Virus record (IMG/VR): IMGVR_UViG_3300025018_003796
Span: 1-43,217 of that record
Length of the DNA stretch: 43,217 nt
Direction: 5' to 3' (one strand)
Source: a virus
Taxonomy: Duplodnaviria; Caudoviricetes
The notes under the pieces were generated by a model. It saw only the letters and a program-made list of their open reading frames with translations. It was not told where the DNA came from and did not search any database. Each line of letters starts with the position of its first letter. The stretch's first letter is position 1. Both the position numbers and the translations under genes were made by a program. Positions 24,425 through 42,280 of the stretch are shown piece by piece.

Positions 24425-27400
24425 TCACCGGTCAGCCTCGGCGGCTGCCCGGCGGGCGGCCCTGATGAGTTCGCGCTTCGGAGGGCGAACCATACTGCGT
24501 TCAACGGCGTTGATTGATCGGTTGTCGTAATACGGTACATTCCCGTAGGCTCCCAGCCCCTTGTCTGTCACCCGTTTGTTGTACGCCTTGATTTCCTCGG
24601 CGATTTTGTCTTTTTCCTTTTCGGATCGCTGTTCTTGCGGGGCCAGCAGCCATTTCCGGTAGCGGGCGGAGATCTCGCTGCGCATGGCGGCATATTCGGA
24701 TTCGATCTTGCGGTCGGCCCATTGTGTCTCGCGCATGGCCGCGATTGAGGCCGGGTTCGCGCCGGCGGCCCGGAGAATCGTTTCCCCGGTGGTGGCCTTG
24801 CGCGGCTTGTCGCCATCGAACAGCGGCATATTGTTTTCGCCAGTGAGACCTTCGCTGGCTTCGCGGTAGGCTTTGACAAAGTTAGCCTCGAATCGCGGCA
24901 ATAGCGTCTCCGCCGCCTTGAGTGCATTCCCCTCGGCAGCGTACTCCCCGGCTTTGATATAATCGAGGACGGCCGATCCGGGGGCACCGAACCAGTCATA
25001 CCACTTATCGAGTTCAAAGGTCCGCACACCGAGCGAGCCTGAAAGATTGATGTTGGCGGCACCCAGCAGCCCGTAACGGGCGGTGCGTCCAGCGGTGCGC
25101 CCGGCAAAGCCGCCAAGCTGTTCGCTGAAGTATTCCTCGATCCATTGATAGTATTCCTCCTCCGGGTCTTCCGGCGGCTCCACGCCGAACGCCTTAAATA
25201 CCATTTTCGCCAGCAGGACGACAAACTGGCGAGGAATGAACGCCTGCGGACCGGCCAAAAGCGCCGGGGCGACCAGCATCCAGGCCAGCGCGCGGAAGTT
25301 TTTCTTATCGACAGCGATTTCCTTCATCAGCAGGTATGTGTTGTGGGCGAATCCCTGGAACATATACATGGACCGCAAGGTCTGCGCACCAACGGACGGG
25401 CCGCGCGTCCATGCCGGAAGATTGGTCTTGCCGAATACCGAGTTGGCCTTGTTGGACACATACAAGCCTTTATTCAATGCCGCCTCGTTGTCTTTTGCGG
25501 TCCACTCCCCTTTGTGCTGCTCCCTGATACCCCGGTAAGTGGCGGCAATCGTGGACATTCGAACGAGCCGTTCCACAACAGAGTAGGCCAGCAAGTGCGA
25601 TTCCGTGAACTTCTGCATCACCATACCGCTGCGGCGCTGTAGCACGGCCAGTGCCTCGTGGTGTATCTGGCTGCTGTCCCACCCGCGGGCGTGGATCTCG
25701 TTGAACAGTTCCGCGCCGGCAGTGTCGAGCCCCTGCCCTTTGCCGGTCTTCTGGTGAATCTGCCAGCGCACATAGTCGGAGGCTGAACGTGTCAGCAGCT
25801 TTGCCGTCTTGAGCATCGGAATATCAGCAAAGGCGCTCATGGCCGGGCCGCTATGCGTGACCAGCGAGGTGAAGTTGACCAGTCCTGAAAACAGACTGGA
25901 CATATACTTTGTGGCCGTAAGTCCCTTGAGTGTCCCGATTACCCGCTCCGAACGTGTCTCGTTGCGCAGCATCTCCCGTGCGTATGAGACCGCCTCATCG
26001 TAGGCGTTGCCCTGTGTGGCGCTGTCGATCCTGTTTTTGGCAACCTCGTCGGCGTAATCGTGATACCAGTCTACAGCGGCTGCATCAATGTCCTCTGCCG
26101 TGACCCTGCTGGCTGTATTCTCGGCAATGAATGCAGTCATTCTGCGCATCCGGTATTGCCGCCACGTCTCGGTCTGCCCGGTAATGGACCGCATGAACTC
26201 CTTGGCGAGCAGCCGTTTGGCGGTGCCGCCGGCAATGCTCTTGCCGGAAAGCGTGATCGCCTTGAGCGCGTCGGTCTCGTATCCCTGCCAGACCTCCTTG
26301 CCGGTGGAACCGTCGCGGGCGATCTTGTGGGACCGGCTACCGCGCTGGTGGATCAGGTCGGCGATGTTTTCGGTAATCGTCTCGGCAAAGGACGAAACCT
26401 GCATCTTGGTGATCTCGTGGCGTAGCAGTGCATTGACAAGGCGTTTTTCAATATCCCCTTTCGGATTGATGAACCGCCATTCCTTCGGCGAATCGTCCAG
26501 CGTCATGTATTTGCCGCCTGCATCCTTCAGGATGCGGTGCTGATGCTTGCTTGTCACGCCGCCCTCAATAACAAAGTGCTTCTCGATTTTCCCGTTGAGC
26601 GTCTTGTAATCCTCCCACCGGCTGGAAATATTGATGGATTCAAGCCCGCGTGACTCTTTTTCAGTCTTCTTGATCTTGTCGAGTGCTTTCTGCAGTTGAT
26701 CGTTAAGGGCGAGCACGGAAACATCCATATAGGAGGTCTCGCTCGGGCGATCGGATACGGACTGGCTGAACTGGTCGTATCCCTGGCGGCGAAGTTCGCG
26801 CATCTTGGCCCAGCGCATCAAGCCCGTGTCGAACAGTTGCAGGAATCGCGCCCCATCACTTGTGCGGACGGCCGATAGCTTGAACTTGCCGCTGCGGCGC
26901 ATACGCGGCATGTAATAGCCCCGCCGGTCGCCCATCTCGCGCAAGGCCTCCCACAGGTCGCCCATTTCCCCGTCGGCCTTCTTGATCTTCGGCATCGGCA
27001 AGCCCAGGTCGTCAAGCTCGTCCTGCGCCGTCTGCACCTCGCCGCGAATCTGTTCATACGCCCGGTCGTTGATCCGGCGGACCGCCAGCAGCATCTCTGC
27101 GGCCTCGGCGCTGTAGCCTTCCTTGCGCAGGTCGTTCGCTTCCAACTGGTGCGCGGCTTCCCATGCCTGGCTCTCGTAGGTGAAGTTATCCTGAAGTGCC
27201 CCACCCTGCTTGACGGGTTTTCCATCCAGGCCGAAGACCATCCAGCCGCCGTTGCGGTCATCCTCTACCGCCCGGTAGCCCTTGGCGTTCATATCGCGGG
27301 TCCAGAGGTATTTCTCCAGGCGTACCCACTCGGGATTCTGCCAGGAAGATATGGCCTTGAGCGCTGGGCGGCCCTTGGTTGTGAACTTGCGCACGGCTTC

Positions 27401-30400
27401 CAGGTCGCTATCCCCTCGCCCGTCATCACCCTGATTGAAGACCAGGCTTTCAAATTTGAATTTATTGTCCATCCAGCGAGACGCGGACTCGACCATGTTG
27501 CGCAGGCCGGGGACTTTCTCGCCGTAATGGTGAATCGTTGACGCCAGCAGGTCAACCCATGTGATATTCGGGCGCTGGTTGGAATCCCGGATATGTGCTT
27601 CGGCCATTGCCGCCGCACTCTTGTAGCGGCTGGGAACGTTGGCATACACATCATCCCACGAGGATTTCGGGTTGTTTCTGCGGTATTCGGCGATTTGCTT
27701 GTCTGTCGCCTTCCAACGGGATCCGTGGCGCTGGAGTCCACCGATAGATGCCATTGTCATATCCATGGCCTGATTCCACATCGTTTCCGCCTTTTCCTTC
27801 TCGAACTCGGCTTCTGCCGGGGGCTTGTCCAGGTGGGCCGGGGGCTTGAACTCCCAGGCGGTGTCGCCATTCTCGGTCTTGACGGCCTGCAGGAATGGCG
27901 CGCCATCGGGCACGTCGTTGGGATCCTCTGTACGGAACACGCCGGGGCGGACCTCCACCGGGCCGGACTGGTCGCCAGCATCGGCGAGGGCAAAGCGGGG
28001 TTCGTCGGTGGCCCTGTCGAACCGCTCGGAAAGCGTCTTCACGCGACCCGAGTCGTCGCGTAGCTCGGTAGCTAATGTCGGCATACTATAGAATCCCTTA
28101 ATCCATTCAGCCGGAACATTGCCGTGGATCTGTATGCCTGAATAGGTGCCATACGTCACGTTAAAGTTCCCGTCCCACGAAAACCTTTCTAGCGTCTTTT
28201 TTATAGGGATTTTAAGATGAATAACAGTATGCGCGTCATTTAGCGCGCTCAATATCCCATCATATCCCATCGCGATGTCATCAGGATCCAAAAACACATA
28301 AACAGACGAATCCCTTGCATTTCCCGTTCTGCCTGACGAGCTTAGCTCTGTTCCGTTTATGCCGCTTGCAAACTTTTCTTTTGGTGCATCTGTGACATGA
28401 TAAGCGTCAACTTCTTTCGCGTCTGTAAGCCTTCTCAACTCACGCATCATAAAGGACATTGAATCTTCATCATATCCCAGAACACCATTGTTGTCATAAA
28501 ACTGCGCCAAGGATTCCAGCGCCTTGGTGGTCATTTCTGGCTGTGGAATATTATTTGTTTTTATCCATGCGCGATTAACCATGCGCTGCGCTTTTTCCCA
28601 ATCTTCTGTCTCCACCGCCGCCAGGTAGGCGGCATCCTGCTCGGCGGTGACGCCCTGTGCCTTATCTCCCCGCGCCGCCGCCAGTTGATTCATCATTGGC
28701 GCATCAGTGTTGTTCTGTTTATCCATGCGGGCCTGTATAACCGAATTGACATAATCCCGCAACTCTGAATCGGTGGCGGAGAGCTTCATGCCGGCGGCGC
28801 GGCCGATCCGGCGGATGGTGGCGACAATGGCGTCGACAAACCGACCCCAGAGGGAGCGGTTGGTCTGGCCGTCGCGGTAGGCCTTGGCGGCCAGTTCACG
28901 GAAGAACTCGACCGATCCGGGTTTGAAGCCGTAATTCTTTTCGATCTCGCGGGCGATTGACTGCCACTTGCCGCCGTAGGTGGCGATTCCAAGCCGCCGG
29001 GTGCGGACGGGATCGGCAAACTCGTTCTCGATCCGGTGGAAGGCTTCCTCGCGAATGTCGCCGGCCAGTTCGCCGGCATTGTTGTAGCGGTCCAGGATGA
29101 ACCAGGACTTGTCGCCCATCGTCACCGCCCGCACCTGCCCTGCCCCATCGCGCATATAGCGGGCCTGGCCCTCGTTGAGGATCGTCGCGCGCATCTTCTC
29201 CGTGACCGGGATGCTCCAGACCTGCTGTGTGGGCCGGATCTCCGCCGCCAGCTTCTCAATCAGAGCATCGGCTTCGGCCTCGGTACGTTTCCGCCAGGTA
29301 TTAGGCCACTGCGTTACGATCCAGCCGTATTGGTCTTTCGCCTTTGTTGCCTCAATTCCGGTGGTATCGCCTTTCAGTGACGGATCAATGCTCGTCTTGC
29401 CCACCGCCGCGTCCTTGTCAAGCTTCTTGAGATACTTGGCCACCTCGGTCGGGAGGATCTTGTCGTAGAATCCCTTCATCCCATCGCCGCCGATTTCGAG
29501 GTCAAGGCCGGACCAGTCCTGCATTCCGTCAGGGGCGGCGACGATCTTGGCGGCTAGTTCCTTCCCAATCACGTCCGGCAATTTTTCCGCCGTTGTTGTA
29601 GTATCGAGCACCGAAACACCGTCTTTGCGGGCTTCTATGCGATACTGCCCGTCTTCTTTGCGGGTACTCGAAACCGTGTCCACCTGCTTGGCTAGGCTGT
29701 ACCGCTCATTCTGCACCTCGCCCGGCGTCCAGGCCACGGCGTCATAGCCCTGCTCGGCGGCCATGCGCAGCACGCGCTTGAACGCCAGCATCGACCACGC
29801 CGGAGTGCGTTTGAACGGGGCGGCGGGGACGCCCTTGCCGTATCCAGAACCGCCGGGAGAGAAGTCGTCGGGTTCTTTTTTGTAACCTTCCTCGCGTCCG
29901 CGCTGGTGCCAGTCGCTCTGTATTTCCTCGATGAACAGGGTCTTGCGAGGGGGCGTGTACGAGGTTCCGTCCGCGCTCGTCACGCGGTCATTCAGCCGCA
30001 TGTGGACAAGGATGTTCGGATCCTCGGGCCAGTGGGAGGATGTGAAAACGCCTGCGTTGCGAATGCTTTTCTGCTTGTTTAGCGTATCAATCGCGGCTTT
30101 TGTTGCGGCTTCTTCCGAAGAATGCCCCTTGGTTAGCGCCGTTTGCCCGGCTTTGTGAATGACATAGTATTTCCCGTCGTTAGGAGATTTAACGGCCCGA
30201 TACTCTCCGGGTAGCTCGGTTATCCGCGTGCGAACAACCGGCAGCCTGATCAACACCTCGCGGTAGTTCTCGCCGCCGGGTAGCTGGTACTGGCCGAACT
30301 TGGTGTTTGCTCCCACAAGCACCTGGTCTCCGTGGGGTGTATCTTCGACATCGGTTGCCCTTCTCGCGTCCTCAATGTCTTCGATTTCAGAAACATACCG

Positions 30401-33400
30401 CTCGGGAATGTCTTTCCGTGCTCCATCCTGGTCCTGATACAGCCAGCGCAGCGGGCGTCCAGACATGTACGGCATGAACCCTGTAGGCACGCCCAACTCT
30501 ATCCCGATTTGGCGAAGGCGCTGCTCTGCCTGCTCGGCTTTGCTCATAACGCTGGCGTCTTCCTTAACGACTTCTTCCAGCTTCGGTCCGCCCTGCTCGA
30601 TGAAGTCCAGCACCTGATCCTTGGTGACCTTGCCCTCGATGCCCTTGAGCCAGTCGGCCAGGCCGATCTCCTCGTACTCGTCGAGCTTGAACGCGCCATT
30701 CTTCTGCGCGCCTTCAAGGCGGGCAACAAGATACTTGGCGGGCATAGCCTTGAAATCCATCCGTTCCACTGCTCGCCCGAGGGCGGAGTAGAACCCGAGT
30801 TTATCCTGGTTGACTTCCGATCTGGCGGCCCGGCCCTCGCCGCGGGCGATTGCCTGGCGGACCGGGGCGGGTAGAGCGTCCAGGCTTTCGACGGCGCTGG
30901 CGTTCTCGCCGGCCCACGGGGTTTTGTCGGCTTCGGCCTGCATTGTCTTCTCGAACGCGGTGCGGGCGATCCCCGCCGCCGCCGCCGTGGTGGCCCCGCG
31001 CGCGGCTTGGGCGGTGGTGCCTGAAACCTGTCCGTTGATGTCGCGCACCCGTTCGATGGCCATATTATCGGACATATTGCCTGGGCTCGGGCGGAACCTT
31101 GCCTTGGATAGAACGGACAGGCGGGCGGCTATCGCCGGGATCTGGTTAACGTCCACCCTGGCGATCATTCGGTTGCCGACGCGGTTGAAGTCGCCGGTAA
31201 TCGCGCGGATCTGGTCGTCGAGGAAATACTTACTGCCGGTCGCGCGCGCTGCCGGTACGGAAATGTTGATCTGCCCGGTGTAGCCTCGCGGCGTAAGGCG
31301 GACAACATCGCTTTCAACGCCGGATCGCTCGGTATCGAGCCATAAGCGGACCGCCGCGCCGTCCACCAGATCCCGGCGGGGATCGCGGGCAAGCTGGCTG
31401 GGAGTCCAGGTCATGGGCATAAGCAGGCCCGTGATGGTTTTGCCTTCGCGCGTCTTGAACGAGACCAGCCGCCCGCGGTTGCCTGCCGCGTTGATCGCCC
31501 GGATTGGATTGCCTGAAATGATCTGGCGCTCGAATCGTCCGCCGGTCTGGTTGACATCGACCTGGCTTTCGTCGGCATAAGCCCGCCCGATGGAGAAACC
31601 GCCATTACCAACCTGCGACAACGGCACGCGCAGCGAATGGCCGCCGGGCTGGTTGGTCATGATATGCAGCACGATACTACCGGGAGACGCCTTGACACGA
31701 TCGGCGGTCTGTTCGGGCAGGGTGATACCGGTGATCATGCCGATCGCGTCGATACCTTCCTGCTCGTTGGTGATGCTCGCATACTCACCAGCCATACGCT
31801 GGAGCGACAACAGTACCGGTGCCACGCGGCTCTGGAATATGGCAGAGGCATTACGCGCATGATCGAGCCGCTTACGGACAGTGGATAGTTCACCAAGCGT
31901 GATGTCGGGATTCGCAACGGTGGTTTCGCTTTCGTCGATGATCTTACTATAAGCCGTTTCAATCTGTTCCACAAAACCGACAATGCGCTCCTGCATGGCC
32001 TCGGCACTGCCGGAACGCTCCTCGAAATCCTTCTGCATTTCCTTGGCGGTTGGCACATGCCGTGTATCCTTGATCTCCCAGCGCTGGATCTTGGTGTCGG
32101 CCTCGAAGATGTTGGCCTCGCTGGTTCCTGGCCGGAGTGTTTCCTCGCTGATCATCACGCCGTCCCAGTCGTCATGCACGGCAATTTCAAGTTCGTACTG
32201 GTCCGTGGCTTTCAAGTAGGCGATATAATCCGTGTATTTCTGGATGATCGCCGCATAGGCCTCTTTCTGGATACGGTTCGGCATCAGGGCCATTCGACCG
32301 GCAAACACGTTGGCGAAGTCTTCCCGGTCGGGAGTGACTGTCCCGGTGCGCTCGTTGACCTCTGGCGACATATCCAGCATATCCTGCAACGCCGGGTTAT
32401 CCTCGAACATATACTGGGCGACGATCTGGTCGCCGTAGCGGTTCATGAAGTCAACCTGGTCGAGCGAGACGCCGCCTTCCTGCGCTGCCGTCGTGTTGGC
32501 GTTGAGGCTTTTCATCTTGCGTTCAAGCACCATGGCCGGACGCCGCTCGGCTTCCAGCGGCAATACCGGCATCGAATACTTGGCGCCGCCTGGAATCATA
32601 CCGGTGCGCTTGATCCGGCCCAGGGTCTGGACCATGACGTTAATATCCCCGTGAGGCTGGGCGATGATCATATTGCGGGTCTTGATCGGGCGTTCCTTGA
32701 ACTTCGGGGAGGCGTGGATCGAAAGGCCCGTTGAACCGGAGGCGTTGAGGATCAGTGCGTCGAGGTCGCCGTTATTGAATCCATTGACCAGGGCATTCTT
32801 GTCCGCCTTCTGCCGCCGCTCGTAGATGCCCGACTTATAGGATGAGTCCGCATAGCGGATCCCGCTTTGCCGTCCGGTAAGCTCGCCGACACGGAGCCCC
32901 TTGGACCGTAGCCCCTGTAGGATCGCATCAATCGGGGAAGTGGGAATATCGACTTCAAGATCATTGATCTGCTCGATGATCCTGTCATAGAAATCCTGCA
33001 ACCCGAGTTCGCCGGCGGTGGTCGTGAAGGTTTCCGCGTTACCTTGCGGGTCCTTGACGGAAAAACGAAGCGTGCGGTCCAGCGCACGCCGGAGCATATC
33101 CCTGAAATCCATCGAGACCGGATCGCCGACGCGCCAGCCGTTCTGCTCGGCAAACTGATCCATCATGGCTTCCTGCGTGTTCATCAGGGCGATGACTGGC
33201 TTTTCCCCGCGCTGGTGGGCGGCGACGGCTTCTTCCACTACGGCGTCGACCTTGGTGGCCAGCAGCATCTGGGAGATGTAATTATGCGCGATCGAGGCGA
33301 AGGGGGTGTAATCCACCTGGGCGTCGGTCATGGCGGTTGCGCGGGCTCCGGGGCCATTGTCCCGTTTAATGGAAGTCCTGACAAGATTGCTGAACATCTT

Positions 33401-36400
33401 GATCTCGCGGAATATCGAGGTCGTGTCGTCAACCTTCGACGCCAGTTCATCCGCCCGTTCCTGCTGGACGATCTTACGCTCGAATACAACGCCGGAGAAA
33501 TCGCGTTCACGGCGGACAAGTTGACCGACCGAAGAAAGGGCTTCGGCGACGGCCTGCTGCAAGGCGACGCCGCCGCGGCTCATGGCCTCTACCAGATCGT
33601 TGATATTATCCGCCGCCCTCCCCAGGAGTGTGCGGAAATAGAGCGGGGCGTTATCGGGCCGCTTGGCGTAGGTGGCCGAAAGGTAAACCACGCCTTTTAC
33701 GCCTTTGCCGTTGAGGATTCCTGAAAGGACGGTCGTTGTCCGGTTGGCCCCGCTGCCTCTCTTGACCTCGCCGCCGCGAAAGAATGCGCCCTGCATCGAA
33801 TCGCTACCGCTGGCCTCGTGCGCCTCGTCCATGATGATCATGACGCGCTCATTGCGGGAAAGGTGCGTGAGCAGGCGCTGCTGGTCATTCTGCACGTTGA
33901 TCTGCGGATAGGTGGCAATAACCGTGTCGAACTTCTGCGACGCGATACCCTTGTCGATAATGCTGTTGATCGCCGTGCGCCTGGCACCGGCCGACTTCGG
34001 GGCCTTGAAAAGCACGCGCCCGGTCTCGTCAACCACATCCGCGCCGCCGTCCGTGGAGCCCAGGATGAACGGATTGAAGGAATAGCCGACATCATTGGCG
34101 TCGCGCTGCAAGTCGGAAAAGAGCTTGGCATCCTTTGTGAAGAATATGGGGATGATCCCGTTCTGCTGGGCATAGCGCATGATCCCGGCGGCCTGGCGGC
34201 CCTTGCCTATGCCGGTCTCGTCGGCAATGATCAGCGCGCCGCCGTTCTCGATCTGGTCGATCGCCAGCGCCACGCCGTCCACCTGCTCGGCGGCCATCGC
34301 CCGGTGCAGATCCGCGATCGTATCGTAACCGAGCTTGTACCGCACCCACTCGTCAATGTCGCCGCCCACCTTGTCACGCAGCTTCTCCAGGGCGGAGGCA
34401 ATGCCGGGGGCCATATTCGAGGGGACAAGGGTTTCGAGGCTGGTCGCGTCGGAGGCCGGAACATAACGGTGCTGACCGGCGTTCTGCGGCTGCCCTAGTA
34501 GAGAAGTGCCTCTAGGTAGGTCCCGAGGTTCAACTCGGTCGCCAGTTCCAGCGCGGTCTCCGGATCTTCCATCGGCGTCTGCGGGCTGTTCATCGCGTCC
34601 CTCGCGCTGGTTATCCATTCCCTTATCGGATGACCCGCGTCCGCCTGGGGCAGAAGTTCTGTCATTAGTGCGTGGACTGAAAAGGTCTTGTTCGTCAGGG
34701 GTTCCGGCGGCAGAATCATCCGAACTTCGTATGGCAGGTTTTCTACGAGGCGGGATTGTTCCTCTCGTAGATCCGCTTCGTCCGCCTCGTCCACCAGCCT
34801 TTGCAGGATTGCTGCCTGGTTGCCCAGGAACTGCTCCAGTGTCTTCGGGGGCGGGCTGTTGCGCTTCAGGACGCACATCAGGTCCGATCTTCCGATCGGC
34901 ATCCAAACTGTCTCGTCTTTTTTCAACTGCATCACGCACCTCCTTGGCTCTGGTATAAATATCATCCCACGACGTTAATCTGTCAACACTTTTTGGAGCC
35001 AGATCCTGCGGCACGGAAGGCACGTCCTGCCGCCGCCCGTCAAGGACGATCACCCGGAGCGGCCATTTGGCCCCCTGCTTGCCGTACAGCTCGCCGTCGA
35101 TCTCGAAATGGTCGGCCACATTGAAGTGGTTATGCAGGTAGTTGAGGAACGTGCGGTCGGCCCCCTGCCCTATTTCGCCGGGTTCGCGGTTCGCACCCAG
35201 GATCATGACGGCACGGCCATCGGCGGCCAGACCGCGCAAGGCCTGCAAGGCGATGACATGCTCGATCTTCTTGATCGCGTACCCGTCCACATTGGTGGTC
35301 GGATAGGAAGCAAACGGCGGATTCATCACAATCGTGGCGTGCGGGCCGCCGGGCTCGCGGGCCGTGGCGTCATCGGTCGTGACGGTGGGCACCCCTAGTG
35401 TGCGCAGATTGGACGCGCGGGCGGGATCCAGTTCGTTCGCGGTGACTTTCGCCTTGTCCAGGCCGATCAGGAGCATCCCGTTGCCGCCGGTGGGCTCGTA
35501 GACGCTGGCGGCCAGATCCGCCGCCGCCATATAGGAGGAAATAAACGCCAGCGGTGCCGGGGTGCTGTAGGCCTGGTTCTCGATACTGGTGGAAGTGCGG
35601 GCGGTAAGCAGGGGCTGATTCTCGTAGAGTTCGACCAGTGCCTTGTATTTGGCGGCCGTATCCAGATTCGCGCGGCTGGCGATCTCGTCGGCGATCTTGA
35701 CCAGTTCAAACTCGATGCGCTCCTGTAGCTGCTTGAGGGTGATTCCCTCGGCGCTGGCCATCTGGCGCATCCGCACTGCTTTCGCCTGGTTGCTGTCTCG
35801 TGAGTTGATTAGCTCGCGAAGGGCCAGATCAGGCTTGACGGCTGTATTCACGTTTTCCGCCGCGGCTTTGTCAATAGCCGAAATCACTTCCCGCGCGTCG
35901 GTCCGGGAGATGTCGTCGAGGGTGTCATCCACCGCGCCGGCGCTCTGCCAGGCCCCGTGCAGGAATACCTTGATCGCGTCCCAGAAGTCGGCCATATCGA
36001 CCGATACGTTATGCGCGAACTGCTTGAAGGTCTTGACGCCACCCTCGGCATAGAGCGCGGCCATCTGCGCCGCCAGCGATACGTTCTCGGGGTCCATCAC
36101 TGGCGGTATCTGAAGCGGGTTCATGCTCAAGGTGCCGTTGTTCTTTGACAGGTTCGCCCGGAGTTTGTCCTGGATCGCCTTGAGCTGCGCCTGCTTCTCG
36201 TCGGAAAGGTTCAGCTTCGCGCTCTTGACTTCCACCTTGGCGCGCGCCTTGGGTGCCGGGGCGGGCGACTGGGCGGGCCGGTTCTGTTCGAGCCATGCAA
36301 ACGCCTCGCTGGCTGTGGCGAATCGCGGCGTCTTGTCGATCGCCTTTCCTTTTTCGTCTTTCGTATAGAAAAACGGTTTCCCGATGACTGCTTCGCGGTC

Positions 36401-39400
36401 TCTAAGCGAACTGGATTGATTCTTCACCCAGTTCTGGATGAAATAATGAGCGAAATACCGTTCTTCCTGTTCTGTCGTCAGCGCGTCAGCGGCTAGCGCC
36501 GGGGTGTTTGGTGCCGGGGCGGCGGGGGTGGCCTCGGCCTTATCCGCGCCCATGTACTTCATGGCCCAGTCGGTCCACTGGTTGTAATTCGTCTCCGGGT
36601 CCTCGTTGGTGGAGTTTACAAACACCCGTGCTTGAGCATAGTCGGGTTTCATCAGGTGCGGGGCGATGTTACCAAGCCAATGCCCCCACGCGGTCCGGAT
36701 CTCGGAAAGCAAGGTGATTCTCAAATTGTGCGGGCTGTTCTTCTGCGTATTCTGGACAATATCCTTCTCGACTATGAGTTCAAGCACATCCTGCCACGGC
36801 TGGAAGATGCGCGCGCCGGCGGCCTTGGCGTTCTGCTGCTGGTTGGCCAGCGGCTTGAGAATGGGTTTTTGTACCGCTGGCTGCTCACCGAATAGATACA
36901 TGTTGGCGGCATCGCCAGCGGCGGGCGGGAAGTTCAGGGCGGACATGGCGGAGAACTGCGTCACGTTAAAATCATCCCCGCGCGCCGCCGCCTCCGCTTT
37001 GGCATTCTCGATCAGCCAGTTGTTCATCTTGATCTGGTCGGGTTTCGTGGTGCGCTTTGTCGAGTATTTCGGATAGGGCGTCGTGGTGCGGCCTGACGAG
37101 GTACGGAACACGTCACCGGGCTTGATCCCGCCCTTGCCGTCGGATACCCTGCCGTCCTCGTCCATCGTGCGGATGTTGGACTGTTCGCCCGCCGCCGCCT
37201 GGGTGGGCGCGGCGCCAGCTTGCTCGACGGCCGCATACAATGCCTGGAACGCTTCGCCGCGGGAATCAAACTCGTTTTCCCCGAGAGCCTGCTTGATTTT
37301 CTCGAAATTGGGGTTCTCGCTTGACGGGATCGCGAACCATTTCTTTGAGGCGATCGCCTGATCCACGATGCCGCCGCGTACAGGGTTGTTGCTTGTTGCA
37401 AGCCCGCCCGGTCGGGATTCGGTCCAGTTGTCGCCTTGTGGTAGCTCCATTGGCCCCAGAAGATCACCGCCAAAGCGCAAAGGTCTCGGGGCGTCGGCCT
37501 CGGCGTCGATGCGTTTCTCGTACTCGGGGTAGGCGTCGGCCAGGTTGGCCATTTGCTCGGACCACATGTTGAAGCCGGCATTCTTCGGGGTGTACTTGAA
37601 TCCCTGCTGCAGGGCATTCTCGTACTCGGCCTTGAACTGCTCGTAGGTCAGCCCGGCGGGAATCGGTGAGTTGGCCGTCATGACTGGCTTGTAGACTTCG
37701 GGTGCGGCAACGGGGGAAGATTGTTGTTTGAATGTCGGAACGTCCTCGCCAAACTCATCGGGGTACGTCTTTGCCAGTTCAGCGGCGTCCATCTGGAACT
37801 GTGGATCAAACTCTAAAGCATTGCGGTCATACTCGATCAGGTCCGACACGCCGTTTTCGCCTTCGCCGGCCAGCGTGATCTTGTCTCCGTCGATCTTTAC
37901 CACGGGTCCGATGAATCCGTCTGCGTCTTGCAGAACCATGCCACGAACAGGCGTATATGGAACGGGTGCTTGGCCGATGCGTCGTTGTTGCTCTGCTGCT
38001 TTGGCTTCCGCCGCCTTCGGTGTCTCGATCCCTGCCAGTTTCGCGGCAAAGGTGATCGCGGCCTGTTCGCCGCCGGGACCGTCGCGGAGGGCATCGAACA
38101 TCTTGAGACGCTCGGCGCGCTGCTTCATGGTGAATGGCTGCTGCTTGATCCAGATGCGCCAGCCCTTGGTGTCGGTGACCTTTACGCGCTCGCCCTTGGC
38201 ATCCTTGTAGAATACGGCTTGCTCGGTGCCGGTGGGGTCGTCGCCCAGCAGGGACATATCCGCCGCCGCTGCCTTGGCTTTGCGCTCTTTCTCGCGCTGG
38301 GCGTCGCGTTCGGCCTGGATGGCTGCATCGTTCCTGGCGGCGCCGCCTGCTAGGTTGAACGGTTCGTCTTTACCAAAGAGGCTCCCCGTTCCAGCCTGGC
38401 CTTGAGTTGCTGCCGTGCCTGTGCGCGTTCCGCCGGCGTCAGGCGCTCGTTCTCCGCGTTGCACTGCATCCCGGCCGCCTCGATCGCTGTCGCCAGCGAA
38501 TAGCCCTTCTGCTGGTACTCCGCCTGGAGCCGTGCCGACTTCCTGCCCATCTCTATCGCGCCTTTGCTGCTCATCGTCTGCCTCCGGTTTGCCTTCATTG
38601 TCAAATGCCGCCACATCAAAGTCAAGATCATCCTCTACTGCCGGGGCGAGCCCCGTCACCTGACCTACGGGAACAGTGAATTTCTGAAAGGTCAGGTTGT
38701 CAGTCAGGTCGTAGTAGAGGCGCATATCATCGCCGACATAGGCGGATTCCACTCGGAAGGTTGACCCTTTGTCCCCCACCCCGTCGGCAACTACATCGGT
38801 CTGTGGCGGGAATATACGACCGGATTCAATCGCCTGCGCCAGTTCAGCGTTCGCGGCGTCAAATGCCTCGTTTTGTTTACCACGGAATTCGTTTTCCTGC
38901 TGGTCGAGCAATTCGGCCTGCTGGTCCTGATCCATGTTGCGCGCACGGGTAGGAAACTGTTTGGTAGCCTTCCAGTGCTGGTAGTCGGCGACTTCCTCGC
39001 GGATCGCGTCCCACATATCGTCAATGCTGGCCCCCTCGGGCAGGAAACCGGCCTCGCCGCCGCGTCCGCCGGTGGAGGATAGGGCGGCAAGCATCTGGTC
39101 CGGGGAGTTGGTGCCGGTCTTGGAGAACACCCCCATGAAGGCGGGCACGGCCAGTTTCTTGCCATCCTCGACAATCCCGTCGTAATTGCCGTCCACCAGC
39201 TTGGCGGGGCCTGCCAGCTTTCCGGGCTTGGTAAACTGGGGCGAGCGCATCCCGCCGCGACTGTTGATCTCGTTGATCAGGGGGGTAACGCGGTCATCCT
39301 GCGTGTAGGTAACATTGCTCTTGAATTGACCTTTTGCCGGGGATTTTTCCAGGGACTTCCGCCGCCGCTCGGTCTTCTTCGCGGCATTCTCCGCCGCCGC

Positions 39401-42280
39401 CGCCTCGATCTTCTGCCGGTTCTCCAGGTTGCCGCGCTCCGCCGCCAGTGCCCGGCGTAGGGTGATCGGGCTCTTGATCGCGTCAATATCCTGCATCTTC
39501 CCGTCATCCCCGCGCAACTCATGCACGCCGAATCTGTGCAACTCCGCCCGCACCGCCGCCGGGGTCATCTTGCCGACGGGGGTTTCCTGCGGGGTGGCCG
39601 CCGGGGTGGCTGCCTGTTGATCGGTCGGATCGGTCCGATCAGTCGGATCAACCGCAGCGCCTGCTTGGCTGGCAATTTCATAGTGCTGCCGGTCCTGCGG
39701 ATTGGGTTTCTGGGCTTCCTGCTCGTTCATCTGGTCTACAGTGGCCTGGAGTCCCTTGCGAGTAACAAGGATTGGCGGATCCTTCCGTTCCCGTTTCTGG
39801 CCGGTGGCGAGCGTATAGAGCGCATCCTCAAGATCCTGTTGTTCCGCCTTGAGTGCGGCCGACCCGTTGCCGGCCTGTTCGTTTTCCTCGATTTCCGCGC
39901 GGATTTCTTGCAGACCGTTCCTGATATTCTGGAGGCGCACCAGTTGCTCCTCTTTCTTGTATGACGGCAATTCGCTGTTTCCAGTGATACGCGCTTCCGC
40001 CTCGGCCTCGTAGAAGCGCCGCTCCTTTGGCGTCATGTTTGGTTCCATCGGGCGATAGTTCGGGTATTGTGGATCTACCGCATCTTGAGCCGCATCGGCT
40101 GTTGACCCGGGGGCAATCCCCGCCGGCTGCTGATCCGCCGACTGTCCTGGCATCCCTTGCAGCGGCATTTGTGCCTGAATTGGTGTTCCGTCCCCTTGTG
40201 CCGCAACGTCTTCCGGTCCTGGCTGTCCCGCCTGTACGTCCTGCTCACCTGCCACCTCCTGTTGTGCCCGTGCCCCCTGTTCTGCCGCCGCCTGCTCGGC
40301 CTCGGCGTCTGCCTGCTGGTCATGCCGGAGGGCGAACATGGCGAGCATCTCGTCGCCGTCGGCCTCCTTGAGATACGCCTGCCACTGGGGCATGGCCTTG
40401 AACCGTGCCAGTTCGGCCTGCTCGTCCGGTCCGGCCAGGGGTTTACCGGTAGCCATATCGAGGGGGCGGGCGGCCTGCTGCTTGACGAATTTGCCGATCT
40501 CGGCATGTTCCGGGGCCACCTGGTCAATCAACGCCGGTTTAGATTCTTCTCCCGTGGTTGCATCTTCCGGCATCTGCACGCCCGCGCGTTTCTGCTGGCG
40601 CTCCTTGTGCCAGCCTTCCTGCAAACCGCGCAGGAACCGCTGCCGGGGGTGCATTTCCTTGTCCTGTTCGGCGAATGCCTGGTGCATGGCGGCAACGTAG
40701 GGACTGTCTGAATCCGGGGTGATGCCGTGTCTGTCAAGAAAGCGGCTGACCTTCTGTAAGCCGTCCTTGAGATTCGTATCGCCGTAAAGGTTGAACAGGA
40801 ACGACTCGACCTCGCGCGCATCGGCTTTCGCTCCATTGGCGGCCAGCGTCATGTGTAGCAGGTTGGCATCCTCTTTAGCGGCCGTCCGGCGGGCGGAACG
40901 CTCGACCGGGGCAACGGCCCCCATCTTGATCACGTTACCAAGGGCCATGGCGGCTATCAGATAAGGCGCGTTCAGACCGAAATCGATTGTCGTGTCCAGC
41001 ATCCGCGTGGAAAGCGGGGTCTTGTCGCCAGCCACGTTCCATAGATCGCGGTTGATGTCCTGTACAAGTTCCTCGCTGACTTCCTCCCACATGTTGCCCA
41101 CGCCGGTGAAACGTCCGGTGGCCTTGTAGATGTCGGACGAACGCACGGCGCGCAACGCTGTGGCCACTTTGCCGCTACGAACCGCTTTCAACAAAGGCAT
41201 ATTTAGTGCTCGAGAGACGGAACGGCCTGCCGCACCCTTGACAGATTGCGGCACGAGAGAGCCCAAGCCGCTAAAGATACCGGCAATAGCCCTGCCAGTG
41301 AGATACTCGGCGGCCACTTCAACGCCCGTGGCACCGTATTCCTTGAGGTAATCGCCCGTGGAAATATCCTTGCCTGCCTCGATGAGCATAAGTCGACCAT
41401 CATCGCCGATGTCGAACTGTGGGCCGCGCTCGCTCTTTGTGGTCACAAGCGGGTCAAGCAGCAGCGTCTGCCCCATTCCAATGGTATTGAACTTTGAAAC
41501 ACCCTCGATCAGTCCACCCATACCGGCACCGACTTTACCGAGTCTGGTCATTTCGCCAGCGCCCTTGTTCCGGTTGGTGACATGCTCACGGATCAGGCGG
41601 TCATCCATGCCGCGCAATTCCTGCGCGATCTGGTCCTCGCTCATACCGGGGAACATCAGATCGGCACTGACTGGATCCTCATTCAGGAAACCGGCCACGG
41701 ATAAGTTTTCGCGGCCTTTGGTTGCCTGGGTCCGGCGGGCTTCAAGTTCTTCCGGCAACTCGTGTTCAATGCGGCCGCGCTGCCGGTCGCGTTCAGACAT
41801 CCGACGTGCAACATCGCGGTAAGTGGTTTCGCCTTGTTCAAAACGTCGCTGCGCATCCTCGAAATCACCGATTTTCGGGCGGGAGAGAGCGCCGCCAAGC
41901 GCAAGATCAGCACTACCAAGCACGGCGTTATCCATGCCCTTTGAATGCCCTTTGAATGTGTGGCCCAGTTTATCGAAGAATCCATCGCGGGGCGGTTCGG
42001 CCTCCGGCATCCGCACACCGGACGGGCGCGCGGTATCGGGAGTTTGCGCGGGGGCGAACGGGTCGTGATCCAGGGGATCGCCGAAAAGCCCGCCGTCTTT
42101 TTCCATGATCGACCGCGCGGAAGGTGGCGCGGGAGTTACGGTTTCCGGTTCCTTCGGCCCCATCAGGCCCCACAAGCGCCGCTTTTGCGGGGCGGCCGGG
42201 GCGGGCGTGTCCGCCGGGGTGAACGGATCGAAGTCAAGCGGTGCACCGAAAAGCCCACCATCGTCGTTGAACGCGGCCAT
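24425..42280 (-). CDS. Giant polyvalent/DarB-like virion protein (N6-adenine MTase + Strawberry-notch-type SF2 helicase + ART-like + PLxRFG-like domains), 5951 aa
   Basis: MTase: YSTP, YEPTGGNGML, MNPPF (about 35.3-35.6 kb). Helicase: ADETGIGKGRQ, MDEAH, LSAT, GSTGLSIHAS, QTLGRIKRTG (about 32.6-34.2 kb). FYSAL..ENYRE..IEEIQSDWHQ domain (29.4-30.8 kb). ART-like YHVT..VYV (28.1-28.6 kb). YYMPRMRRSGKF (about 26.9 kb). Follows an internal virion gene. Confidence 0.9.
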   Translation of the reverse strand: MAAFNDDGGLFGAPLDFDPFTPADTPAPAAPQKRRLWGLMGPKEPETVTPAPPSARSIMEKDGGLFGDPLDHDPFAPAQTPDTARPSGVRMPEAEPPRDGFFDKLGHTFKGHSKGMDNAVLGSADLALGGALSRPKIGDFEDAQRRFEQGETTYRDVARRMSERDRQRGRIEHELPEELEARRTQATKGRENLSVAGFLNEDPVSADLMFPGMSEDQIAQELRGMDDRLIREHVTNRNKGAGEMTRLGKVGAGMGGLIEGVSKFNTIGMGQTLLLDPLVTTKSERGPQFDIGDDGRLMLIEAGKDISTGDYLKEYGATGVEVAAEYLTGRAIAGIFSGLGSLVPQSVKGAAGRSVSRALNMPLLKAVRSGKVATALRAVRSSDIYKATGRFTGVGNMWEEVSEELVQDINRDLWNVAGDKTPLSTRMLDTTIDFGLNAPYLIAAMALGNVIKMGAVAPVERSARRTAAKEDANLLHMTLAANGAKADAREVESFLFNLYGDTNLKDGLQKVSRFLDRHGITPDSDSPYVAAMHQAFAEQDKEMHPRQRFLRGLQEGWHKERQQKRAGVQMPEDATTGEESKPALIDQVAPEHAEIGKFVKQQAARPLDMATGKPLAGPDEQAELARFKAMPQWQAYLKEADGDEMLAMFALRHDQQADAEAEQAAAEQGARAQQEVAGEQDVQAGQPGPEDVAAQGDGTPIQAQMPLQGMPGQSADQQPAGIAPGSTADAAQDAVDPQYPNYRPMEPNMTPKERRFYEAEAEARITGNSELPSYKKEEQLVRLQNIRNGLQEIRAEIEENEQAGNGSAALKAEQQDLEDALYTLATGQKRERKDPPILVTRKGLQATVDQMNEQEAQKPNPQDRQHYEIASQAGAAVDPTDRTDPTDQQAATPAATPQETPVGKMTPAAVRAELHRFGVHELRGDDGKMQDIDAIKSPITLRRALAAERGNLENRQKIEAAAAENAAKKTERRRKSLEKSPAKGQFKSNVTYTQDDRVTPLINEINSRGGMRSPQFTKPGKLAGPAKLVDGNYDGIVEDGKKLAVPAFMGVFSKTGTNSPDQMLAALSSTGGRGGEAGFLPEGASIDDMWDAIREEVADYQHWKATKQFPTRARNMDQDQQAELLDQQENEFRGKQNEAFDAANAELAQAIESGRIFPPQTDVVADGVGDKGSTFRVESAYVGDDMRLYYDLTDNLTFQKFTVPVGQVTGLAPAVEDDLDFDVAAFDNEGKPEADDEQQRRDRDGQEVGTAPGGVPAEGLFAGDSDRGGRDAVQRGERAPDAGGTRTGTAATQGQAGTGSLFGKDEPFNLAGGAARNDAAIQAERDAQREKERKAKAAAADMSLLGDDPTGTEQAVFYKDAKGERVKVTDTKGWRIWIKQQPFTMKQRAERLKMFDALRDGPGGEQAAITFAAKLAGIETPKAAEAKAAEQQRRIGQAPVPYTPVRGMVLQDADGFIGPVVKIDGDKITLAGEGENGVSDLIEYDRNALEFDPQFQMDAAELAKTYPDEFGEDVPTFKQQSSPVAAPEVYKPVMTANSPIPAGLTYEQFKAEYENALQQGFKYTPKNAGFNMWSEQMANLADAYPEYEKRIDAEADAPRPLRFGGDLLGPMELPQGDNWTESRPGGLATSNNPVRGGIVDQAIASKKWFAIPSSENPNFEKIKQALGENEFDSRGEAFQALYAAVEQAGAAPTQAAAGEQSNIRTMDEDGRVSDGKGGIKPGDVFRTSSGRTTTPYPKYSTKRTTKPDQIKMNNWLIENAKAEAAARGDDFNVTQFSAMSALNFPPAAGDAANMYLFGEQPAVQKPILKPLANQQQNAKAAGARIFQPWQDVLELIVEKDIVQNTQKNSPHNLRITLLSEIRTAWGHWLGNIAPHLMKPDYAQARVFVNSTNEDPETNYNQWTDWAMKYMGADKAEATPAAPAPNTPALAADALTTEQEERYFAHYFIQNWVKNQSSSLRDREAVIGKPFFYTKDEKGKAIDKTPRFATASEAFAWLEQNRPAQSPAPAPKARAKVEVKSAKLNLSDEKQAQLKAIQDKLRANLSKNNGTLSMNPLQIPPVMDPENVSLAAQMAALYAEGGVKTFKQFAHNVSVDMADFWDAIKVFLHGAWQSAGAVDDTLDDISRTDAREVISAIDKAAAENVNTAVKPDLALRELINSRDSNQAKAVRMRQMASAEGITLKQLQERIEFELVKIADEIASRANLDTAAKYKALVELYENQPLLTARTSTSIENQAYSTPAPLAFISSYMAAADLAASVYEPTGGNGMLLIGLDKAKVTANELDPARASNLRTLGVPTVTTDDATAREPGGPHATIVMNPPFASYPTTNVDGYAIKKIEHVIALQALRGLAADGRAVMILGANREPGEIGQGADRTFLNYLHNHFNVADHFEIDGELYGKQGAKWPLRVIVLDGRRQDVPSVPQDLAPKSVDRLTSWDDIYTRAKEVRDAVEKRRDSLDADRKIGPDVRPEAQQPAPEDTGAVPGQPGSNPAKAGGRGGRSGSTRGTIPPRRKPAIRSSDDSAAGTPDEQDLFSPRTNDRTSAPGGRGSSDKGMDNQREGRDEQPADADGRSGDRAGTGDRVEPRDLPRGTSLLGQPQNAGQHRYVPASDATSLETLVPSNMAPGIASALEKLRDKVGGDIDEWVRYKLGYDTIADLHRAMAAEQVDGVALAIDQIENGGALIIADETGIGKGRQAAGIMRYAQQNGIIPIFFTKDAKLFSDLQRDANDVGYSFNPFILGSTDGGADVVDETGRVLFKAPKSAGARRTAINSIIDKGIASQKFDTVIATYPQINVQNDQQRLLTHLSRNERVMIIMDEAHEASGSDSMQGAFFRGGEVKRGSGANRTTTVLSGILNGKGVKGVVYLSATYAKRPDNAPLYFRTLLGRAADNINDLVEAMSRGGVALQQAVAEALSSVGQLVRRERDFSGVVFERKIVQQERADELASKVDDTTSIFREIKMFSNLVRTSIKRDNGPGARATAMTDAQVDYTPFASIAHNYISQMLLATKVDAVVEEAVAAHQRGEKPVIALMNTQEAMMDQFAEQNGWRVGDPVSMDFRDMLRRALDRTLRFSVKDPQGNAETFTTTAGELGLQDFYDRIIEQINDLEVDIPTSPIDAILQGLRSKGLRVGELTGRQSGIRYADSSYKSGIYERRQKADKNALVNGFNNGDLDALILNASGSTGLSIHASPKFKERPIKTRNMIIAQPHGDINVMVQTLGRIKRTGMIPGGAKYSMPVLPLEAERRPAMVLERKMKSLNANTTAAQEGGVSLDQVDFMNRYGDQIVAQYMFEDNPALQDMLDMSPEVNERTGTVTPDREDFANVFAGRMALMPNRIQKEAYAAIIQKYTDYIAYLKATDQYELEIAVHDDWDGVMISEETLRPGTSEANIFEADTKIQRWEIKDTRHVPTAKEMQKDFEERSGSAEAMQERIVGFVEQIETAYSKIIDESETTVANPDITLGELSTVRKRLDHARNASAIFQSRVAPVLLSLQRMAGEYASITNEQEGIDAIGMITGITLPEQTADRVKASPGSIVLHIMTNQPGGHSLRVPLSQVGNGGFSIGRAYADESQVDVNQTGGRFERQIISGNPIRAINAAGNRGRLVSFKTREGKTITGLLMPMTWTPSQLARDPRRDLVDGAAVRLWLDTERSGVESDVVRLTPRGYTGQINISVPAARATGSKYFLDDQIRAITGDFNRVGNRMIARVDVNQIPAIAARLSVLSKARFRPSPGNMSDNMAIERVRDINGQVSGTTAQAARGATTAAAAGIARTAFEKTMQAEADKTPWAGENASAVESLDALPAPVRQAIARGEGRAARSEVNQDKLGFYSALGRAVERMDFKAMPAKYLVARLEGAQKNGAFKLDEYEEIGLADWLKGIEGKVTKDQVLDFIEQGGPKLEEVVKEDASVMSKAEQAEQRLRQIGIELGVPTGFMPYMSGRPLRWLYQDQDGARKDIPERYVSEIEDIEDARRATDVEDTPHGDQVLVGANTKFGQYQLPGGENYREVLIRLPVVRTRITELPGEYRAVKSPNDGKYYVIHKAGQTALTKGHSSEEAATKAAIDTLNKQKSIRNAGVFTSSHWPEDPNILVHMRLNDRVTSADGTSYTPPRKTLFIEEIQSDWHQRGREEGYKKEPDDFSPGGSGYGKGVPAAPFKRTPAWSMLAFKRVLRMAAEQGYDAVAWTPGEVQNERYSLAKQVDTVSSTRKEDGQYRIEARKDGVSVLDTTTTAEKLPDVIGKELAAKIVAAPDGMQDWSGLDLEIGGDGMKGFYDKILPTEVAKYLKKLDKDAAVGKTSIDPSLKGDTTGIEATKAKDQYGWIVTQWPNTWRKRTEAEADALIEKLAAEIRPTQQVWSIPVTEKMRATILNEGQARYMRDGAGQVRAVTMGDKSWFILDRYNNAGELAGDIREEAFHRIENEFADPVRTRRLGIATYGGKWQSIAREIEKNYGFKPGSVEFFRELAAKAYRDGQTNRSLWGRFVDAIVATIRRIGRAAGMKLSATDSELRDYVNSVIQARMDKQNNTDAPMMNQLAAARGDKAQGVTAEQDAAYLAAVETEDWEKAQRMVNRAWIKTNNIPQPEMTTKALESLAQFYDNNGVLGYDEDSMSFMMRELRRLTDAKEVDAYHVTDAPKEKFASGINGTELSSSGRTGNARDSSVYVFLDPDDIAMGYDGILSALNDAHTVIHLKIPIKKTLERFSWDGNFNVTYGTYSGIQIHGNVPAEWIKGFYSMPTLATELRDDSGRVKTLSERFDRATDEPRFALADAGDQSGPVEVRPGVFRTEDPNDVPDGAPFLQAVKTENGDTAWEFKPPAHLDKPPAEAEFEKEKAETMWNQAMDMTMASIGGLQRHGSRWKATDKQIAEYRRNNPKSSWDDVYANVPSRYKSAAAMAEAHIRDSNQRPNITWVDLLASTIHHYGEKVPGLRNMVESASRWMDNKFKFESLVFNQGDDGRGDSDLEAVRKFTTKGRPALKAISSWQNPEWVRLEKYLWTRDMNAKGYRAVEDDRNGGWMVFGLDGKPVKQGGALQDNFTYESQAWEAAHQLEANDLRKEGYSAEAAEMLLAVRRINDRAYEQIRGEVQTAQDELDDLGLPMPKIKKADGEMGDLWEALREMGDRRGYYMPRMRRSGKFKLSAVRTSDGARFLQLFDTGLMRWAKMRELRRQGYDQFSQSVSDRPSETSYMDVSVLALNDQLQKALDKIKKTEKESRGLESINISSRWEDYKTLNGKIEKHFVIEGGVTSKHQHRILKDAGGKYMTLDDSPKEWRFINPKGDIEKRLVNALLRHEITKMQVSSFAETITENIADLIHQRGSRSHKIARDGSTGKEVWQGYETDALKAITLSGKSIAGGTAKRLLAKEFMRSITGQTETWRQYRMRRMTAFIAENTASRVTAEDIDAAAVDWYHDYADEVAKNRIDSATQGNAYDEAVSYAREMLRNETRSERVIGTLKGLTATKYMSSLFSGLVNFTSLVTHSGPAMSAFADIPMLKTAKLLTRSASDYVRWQIHQKTGKGQGLDTAGAELFNEIHARGWDSSQIHHEALAVLQRRSGMVMQKFTESHLLAYSVVERLVRMSTIAATYRGIREQHKGEWTAKDNEAALNKGLYVSNKANSVFGKTNLPAWTRGPSVGAQTLRSMYMFQGFAHNTYLLMKEIAVDKKNFRALAWMLVAPALLAGPQAFIPRQFVVLLAKMVFKAFGVEPPEDPEEEYYQWIEEYFSEQLGGFAGRTAGRTARYGLLGAANINLSGSLGVRTFELDKWYDWFGAPGSAVLDYIKAGEYAAEGNALKAAETLLPRFEANFVKAYREASEGLTGENNMPLFDGDKPRKATTGETILRAAGANPASIAAMRETQWADRKIESEYAAMRSEISARYRKWLLAPQEQRSEKEKDKIAEEIKAYNKRVTDKGLGAYGNVPYYDNRSINAVERSMVRPPKRELIRAARRAAAEADR
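34495..34932 (-). CDS. Nested +1-frame gene 1 (145 aa) inside the giant ORF
   Basis: AGGAGGT-5nt-ATG and own promoter; globular acidic helical sequence while the host frame is low-complexity linker. Confidence 0.7.
   Translation of the reverse strand: MQLKKDETVWMPIGRSDLMCVLKRNSPPPKTLEQFLGNQAAILQRLVDEADEADLREEQSRLVENLPYEVRMILPPEPLTNKTFSVHALMTELLPQADAGHPIREWITSARDAMNSPQTPMEDPETALELATELNLGTYLEALLY
34958..34986 (-). promoter_or_regulatory. Intragenic promoter TTGACA-N17-GATATT
   Basis: Perfect -35, 17-nt spacer, -10 ends 25 nt before the nested ATG. Confidence 0.6.
38350..38574 (-). CDS. Nested +1-frame gene 2 (74 aa) inside the giant ORF
   Basis: GGAGG-6nt-ATG and own promoter; helical MSSKGAIEMGRKSARLQAEYQQKGYSLATAIEAAG... 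Confidence 0.6.
   Translation of the reverse strand: MSSKGAIEMGRKSARLQAEYQQKGYSLATAIEAAGMQCNAENERLTPAERAQARQQLKARLERGASLVKTNRST
38597..38625 (-). promoter_or_regulatory. Intragenic promoter TTGACT-N17-GACAAT
   Basis: 17-nt spacer; -10 ends 22 nt before the nested ATG. Confidence 0.55.
40075..40248 (-). CDS. Nested +1-frame gene 3 (57 aa, basic, His/Cys) inside the giant ORF
   Basis: AGGAGGT-5nt-GTG; MSRTYRRD...HKGTEHQFRHKCRCKGC; no promoter seen. Confidence 0.45.
   Translation of the reverse strand: MSRTYRRDSQDRKTLRHKGTEHQFRHKCRCKGCQDSRRISSRRGLPPGQQPMRLKMR

Follow-up and report, generated by a model that had tools for sequence, protein, structure and literature searches.

The window, which is the whole 43,217-nucleotide stretch analysed here, is a provirus record that includes terminase, portal, major head and adaptor genes, and it very likely carries a real, unannotated gene, X, that lies wholly inside the intact open reading frame (ORF) of a giant gene (its host gene) and is read in another frame. 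This conclusion follows from two observations: most related giant genes keep the same layout, and a likely relative of X is found free-standing between separate enzyme genes in some Bacteroidota.

The nested frame and its signals in the window

The features concerned are the following, in order of transcription within the host gene.

24425..42280, minus strand: host gene, encoding a 5951-amino-acid phage polyvalent protein with an N6-adenine methylase and a Strawberry-notch-type SF2 helicase (ORF and family matches)
35120..35587, minus strand: DNA adenine methylase core of the host protein (PHROG 6263, E 1.1e-5, amino acids 2232-2387; the domain runs on to about amino acid 2450 and an NPPF motif is visible)
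34981..34986, minus strand: putative -35 box TTGACA, spelled by host Val-Asp-Arg codons
34958..34963, minus strand: putative -10 box GATATT (4 of 6 match, weak relative to the consensus)
34937..34945, minus strand: Shine-Dalgarno (SD) sequence AAGGAGGTG, a 9-nucleotide match
34489..34933, minus strand: host-frame linker, low complexity and without purifying selection (amino acids 2450-2598)
34495..34932, minus strand: gene X, nested in the +1 frame of the host ORF (145 amino acids, net charge -11, predicted beta-hairpin plus helical fold)
33461..34237, minus strand: helicase N-terminal lobe, AAA_34 (PF13872, E 1.6e-17, amino acids 2682-2940)
32183..32893, minus strand: helicase C-terminal lobe, Helicase_C_4 (PF13871, E 4.3e-11, amino acids 3130-3366)

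The host protein has an N6-adenine methylase followed by an SF2 SWI2/SNF2-like ATPase in one giant phage protein, and in this it is like the Strawberry-notch-type methylase-helicase dyad described in polyvalent phage proteins (Iyer et al. 2017, PMC5512222); the word "overlap" is absent from the main text of that paper, whose description of the dyad mentions no nested gene. With phage P1 DarB the host protein shares a DarB-like layout only, as the two have no detectable sequence similarity and are not alignable. The same prophage has a separate C5-cytosine DNA methylase gene (22104-20803, minus strand).

The original prediction was of a complete promoter, ribosome-binding site and gene in the +1 frame between the two enzyme domains, and its motifs are found as described: on the minus strand TTGACA (34986-34981), a 17-nucleotide spacer and GATATT (34963-34958) precede AGGAGGT (34944-34938), five further nucleotides, the ATG at 34932 and a TAG that ends at 34495, which gives 145 amino acids in a frame that is +1 relative to the 5951-amino-acid host ORF (42280-24425). 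The host protein does turn into the G/R/D/P-rich low-complexity sequence that was reported over this interval, with 104 of 147 residues across the overlap being G, R, D, P, A or S. An alternative in-frame ATG lies upstream at 34965 (156 amino acids) and has no SD; database relatives of X align from the 34932 start.

Taken alone, the length of the X ORF and the individual promoter and SD motifs are within chance. There are 6 promoter-like sites between 24000 and 43217 versus 6.3 expected (that of X is joint best, 10/12 sigma-70-like), AGGAGGT occurs 5 times in the window versus 2.9 expected, the +1 frame stays open in 60% of cases when the host linker is recoded at random with synonymous codons (2000 recodings), and the giant gene holds 11 +1 stretches of at least 100 codons. 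The case for X rests on comparison. The hydrophobic fraction of X is 0.324 versus a maximum of 0.276 in 2000 recodings, and against a profile of relatives from which it was left out X reaches 133.7 bits, the highest score of a recoding being 19.3 (953 of 1000 scored). Its SD is the strongest among the long off-frame ORFs of the giant gene, and it is the sole acidic one among the five of these that have an SD of at least 5 nucleotides.

We note two further +1 ORFs on the minus strand of the giant gene. The first (40248-40075) has a GTG start and an 8-nucleotide SD and would encode a basic 57-amino-acid protein with three cysteines that has no Pfam or PHROG match; the other (38574-38350, 74 amino acids, SD GGAGG) lies over a G/R/D-rich host stretch (amino acids 1236-1310), has no family match, and found no relative when used as query. 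No TnpV Pfam match was found for X or for five other off-frame ORFs.

Conservation and selection at homologous loci

Homologous loci were gathered from 26 viral matches, 80 of 455 metagenomic matches, 80 of 231 genomic matches, the window's own locus and 7 annotated records. Of these 194 loci 181 have both anchors, the host frame is without a stop (fused) in 153 of the 181, and 103 of the fused loci, window included, are non-redundant. A +1 ORF was counted if it was at least 90 amino acids long and started within -20 to +15 codons of the methylase end. Such an ORF is present at the methylase-helicase linker in 86 of the 103 loci and none is present in the +2 frame; among other hydrophilic 130-codon host windows, examined as a control, 1 of 44 is open in +1. 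The 17 fused loci without X include 10 with a linker shorter than 80 codons, one of them with an assembly gap. Among 69 short-linker loci, 63 have the +1 stop placed at codons -2 to +10 relative to where the helicase starts, and all 86 nested products are net acidic (median charge -8, median length 133 amino acids). Several loci, L005, L006, L007 and L009 among them, have linkers of 250-340 codons in which X lies at the methylase end and an extra helical segment follows in the host frame after the X stop.

By sequence, 55 of the 86 nested ORFs form one cluster; among the other 31, six join it at >70% probability, one joins the free-standing family described below and five are weakly linked, and about 19 of the 86 have no sequence link to the family. 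The last group includes an unannotated 119-amino-acid acidic +1 ORF at the same place in the cultured Bacteroides phage BS-TP4 (PQ571277, L002:3579-3938). An iterative HMM seeded by the window's clade reaches only 21 of the 86 at E 1e-4. Exhaustive phmmer with the 145-amino-acid product, the kind of search that had been asked for earlier, gives 63 matches besides X itself, most of them 130-150 amino acids long and aligned from residue 1; one of these, P0164, is a spurious repeat match. Another, P0126 (361 amino acids, on a 9-kb contig), has the X domain at its C-terminus behind an unrelated 222-amino-acid region and is possibly in a non-nested context. A word-based homologue search with X found only X itself among 31 candidates, single-sequence scans of viral contigs with the helicase, X and the 74-amino-acid off-frame ORF gave no matches, and blastn of the region against phage records gave none.

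The expectation that standard annotation would miss such a gene is borne out, in that the nested ORF is unannotated wherever the record annotation was inspected. Four short relatives of X that were looked up are called only on contigs of less than 3 kb, which is consistent with gene callers overlooking the nested form on long contigs. In the 120 host homologues listed, of 258 found, the linker is of low complexity, and among the matches shown it often opens with a dipeptide that is able to spell ATG in +1.

The frame-specific comparison suggested with the original prediction points to purifying selection on the nested frame. When the window and its nearest relative, L030, are aligned on the +1 frame, nucleotide identity in the linker at host codon positions 1, 2 and 3 is 0.47, 0.63 and 0.71, versus 0.84, 0.88 and 0.33 in the helicase; across the linker the +1 products share 55% of their amino acids and the host-frame sequences 34%, and pN/pS is 0.45 for +1 as against 1.52 for the host frame, the helicase having 0.17. 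In alignments without a bias toward +1, host codon position 1 is the one that varies most in 15 of 15 disjoint pairs when DNA is aligned and in 13 of 15 when the host protein is.

The signals for independent initiation are also conserved across loci. With codons picked by their host amino acids only, the wobble base that forms the ATG is T in 38/42 and 31/32 cases at two start positions (69/74), versus a 49% background, and an SD of at least 4 nucleotides lies ahead of 39 of 64 homologous starts versus 130 of 957 control ATGs. Of the predicted internal promoter, part holds and part does not. In the window's clade the Val codon at -35 is GTT in 21 of 23 loci versus a 26% background, the strongest bias among 395 columns, and of 26 Val columns only one is more biased than that of the Val at the -10 end; this codon-bias test covered 25 of the clade's 29 loci (four divergent ones were excluded), and its p-values are not independent because the loci are related. 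The last -10 base is T in 20 of 29 loci of this clade, the -10 match is weak in many, and no -35 codon signal was seen in a second clade, with its 35 loci. A putative internal sigma-70 promoter is thus plausible in the window's clade and is not general.

Free-standing relatives and the direction of the overlap

In 10 of the 27 split loci, whose methylase and helicase are separate genes, an acidic gene of 139-159 amino acids comes between the two, and start and stop codons frequently overlap; these 10 loci belong to Flavobacteriaceae, Cyclobacteriaceae and Saprospiraceae, and X is missing from the other 17. (Between L032 and the window there is a one-base gap, in the helicase and not in X, and L032 is excluded from the split counts.) All 10 free-standing copies are acidic. 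In profile comparisons the free-standing family matches the nested core at 91.9% (score 41, versus at most 13.7 in 20 column shuffles), the second clade at 90.8% and the nested L097 at 93.4%, and its direct match to the window's clade is weak (9% and 12%); by these profiles the window's clade is tied to the free-standing family by way of the second clade and L097. Standalone homologues of X, in the sense of this profile linkage, do therefore exist. The free-standing family has 187 database members, almost all of them named "hypothetical". Its profile matches 4 of 5 genomes, 6 times in all, and a further scan of 301 family genomes has matches in 4, one of which is weak. The 4 new strong copies that came from the X profile without other cues are each flanked by both methylase and helicase genes.

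Named, cultured Flavobacteriaceae such as Aquimarina latercula DSM 2041 (L183) carry the free-standing operon, so the function of X could be tested there with three separate genes. We also note that free-standing operons run on into an AAA_5 ATPase gene and a DUF7192 gene (L195:12180-14140, L196:12133-14114), that Mokosh-like genes lie just upstream in L195, and that in a Saprospiraceae genome (L167:183-1859) the split operon is directly preceded by a gene of the thiol-activated cytolysin family.

An AlphaFold model of X, made from an 81-sequence alignment, has a pLDDT of 95.6 and a pTM of 0.89 and consists of a short beta-hairpin and seven helices; together with the net charge this agrees with the folded, acidic, helical product that had been anticipated. 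The model of a free-standing member (pLDDT 92.6) has a similar order of elements. Foldseek at E 0.001 gave no structural match for X in PDB or BFVD, VIA best Z values for the nested and free-standing models are 2.8 and 3.4 (results that do not establish a new fold), sequences of solved structures gave no match to X at E <0.05, and an Atlas search gave no usable match for X or the free-standing member. X has no significant Pfam, PHROG, NCBIfam or PADLOC family (there is one weak Med7 match below the cut-off), and free-standing members have no family match. The core of the original prediction, an independently initiated nested gene, is upheld by its conservation in 86 of 103 loci, by selection on the +1 frame, by the conserved ATG and SD, by the confident fold and by the free homologues.

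That prediction also called the gene overprinted. X does overlap its host; the host-frame linker, however, is the unconstrained frame, so that the linker and not X could be the later of the two and the term may be the wrong way round. Such an origin, a polymerase spacer arising over a pre-existing small gene, has been proposed for hepatitis B virus (Pavesi 2021, PMC8227390). In our trees (FastTree, 129 rows; IQ-TREE, 46 rows) the free-standing loci fall in one clade among Bacteroidota-type loci, and in a tree without an outgroup a branch that sets the fused loci apart from the rest is not rejected by the AU test (p 0.547). The test thus allows the opposite rooting, and the two forms may reflect either a fusion laid over an older gene or a later fission.

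Possible roles of X and known systems

X sits between methylase and helicase in every copy examined, and it probably acts on the methylase-helicase module. Its most attractive role, which we put forward tentatively and at somewhat less than an even chance, is to hold its cognate helicase-methylase in check as an acidic, separately translated partner. A partner that inhibits the helicase is favoured because X is acidic, has separate start signals, and has distances that track those of the helicase more than those of the methylase (across 42 loci, with relatedness and physical linkage ignored, r is 0.72-0.79 and partial r 0.48-0.61 for the helicase, and 0.63 and 0.00-0.16 for the methylase). In such a mechanism translation of X would begin within the mRNA of the giant gene, at the internal SD and ATG, and in the window's clade probably also on a shorter mRNA from the internal sigma-70 promoter; by these two routes X would be made apart from the giant protein and probably in excess of it. 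X would then occupy a DNA-contacting surface of the helicase, so that the enzyme would neither translocate on nor methylate DNA during lysogeny or virion assembly, and packaged giant protein injected without X would work on the incoming phage DNA. Virion packaging and injection of the giant protein are carried over here from what is described for P1 DarB (PMC5512222, PMC12810830) and may hold by analogy. Against this reading, the enzyme domains of X-bearing loci are not net basic (median charges -2 and -5). Methylase and helicase motifs can also be recognised in nearly all loci that lack X (17/103 fused, 17/27 split), which means that doing without X does not make the enzyme harmful in every case.

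X might instead help the giant protein to fold or be packaged, as a chaperone, or be injected with it as an accessory subunit, with a role like that of P1 Ulx and not that of an inhibitor; we consider this possible but on the unlikely side. The linkage of X to the module is equally strict on such a reading, a stoichiometric subunit or a chaperone would equally well account for the translational coupling of X to methylase and helicase in split operons, and P1 carries a 146-amino-acid accessory gene beside darB whose product is assigned to the Dar system (PMC12810830). On the other hand X has no similarity to Ulx (probability 0.5%), it is missing from many Bacteroidota loci, and a separate promoter-like signal, as seen in one clade, would be superfluous for a co-expressed subunit.

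It is unlikely that X is an anti-defence or superinfection factor, such as an acidic DNA mimic, that acts on some other target (a restriction enzyme of the bacterium or another of its defence enzymes) and lies in the linker only because coding space is free there. The uniform acidity of X would suit such a factor, as would its fast evolution (mean distance 0.78 versus 0.51-0.56 for the enzyme parts), start signals of its own that would permit early or lysogenic expression, and the joining of the X domain to an unrelated N-terminus in P0126; yet none of the 4 new strong copies recovered by the profile-only search is an orphan, and X remains between the two enzyme genes even where it is free of overlap. 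Access to the +1 frame by programmed frameshifting, which would make X an alternative C-terminal domain of a truncated methylase, is very improbable: many loci do have a stretch of open +1 frame ahead of the ATG, but the window has a +1 stop 14 codons upstream of it, the ATG wobble base and SD are conserved, split loci give X its own start overlapping the methylase stop, and none of 6 longer database matches checked has a host-like N-terminus. That the ORF is an unexpressed by-product of a hydrophilic linker, whose poverty in Leu, Ile, Met and Val leaves +1 open in most recodings and whose promoter and SD motifs are individually unremarkable, is hardly credible, since selection favours the +1 frame (which largely refutes it already), recodings fall far below X on the relatives' profile, and free-standing homologues exist.

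A restraining partner of the module, if that is what X is, would be a new control point on DarB-like antirestriction. X adds a widespread, unannotated protein family without structural match to the phage antirestriction machinery, and what passes for a "disordered linker" in these giant proteins is a shadow cast by another gene. The widest picture, of an old methylase-X-helicase module that occurs as an operon or as a two-frame fusion, in which the linker would be a frame invented over a pre-existing gene of new fold and X a dedicated off-switch hidden in its target's gene in many bacterial phyla, is doubtful as a whole.

P1 Ulx is like X in size (146 amino acids) and in adjoining a methylase-helicase antirestriction gene, and unlike it in being a separate, downstream gene without sequence similarity; as a relative of X it was rejected, the hhalign comparison (against the single P1 sequence) covering 15 columns. 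The acidic antirestriction proteins Ocr and ArdA act by DNA mimicry. They are like X in being small, net acidic and encoded on mobile elements, and differ from it in that X is tied to a cognate enzyme pair; the matches listed by the family and structure searches include no sequence or fold match between X and either of them. Both are named in PMC5512222.

The listings returned by our search of mostly open literature showed no description of the nested family of X. Rz1, within Rz of phage lambda, is nested out of frame on the same strand, has an SD of its own and is believed to act in concert with its host gene's function. Same-strand nested genes are of a known kind (PMC11230408, PMC8227390), and comS in srfA and gndA in gnd, as described, are like X in lying on the same strand and out of frame inside a larger gene, with their own SD and a function thought to be host-related (PMC11230408). 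X (median 133 amino acids) is larger than the 36-amino-acid GndA (PMC11230408), and unlike comS and gndA it has a predicted globular fold without structural match, and its own frame, not the host's, dominates selection. Close parallels in arrangement are the movement protein of apple stem grooving virus and the hepatitis B virus spacer, where an internal overlap also lies in a domain linker and the two frames evolve asymmetrically, that of the linker being unconstrained (PMC8227390). The cases described there are from small eukaryotic viruses, whereas the X layout occurs in phages, prophages and plasmids of many bacterial phyla, and for X, set against those viral cases, an un-nested operon form is known; nested and free-standing forms within one family make X a rare natural test of overlap gain and loss in prokaryotic elements.
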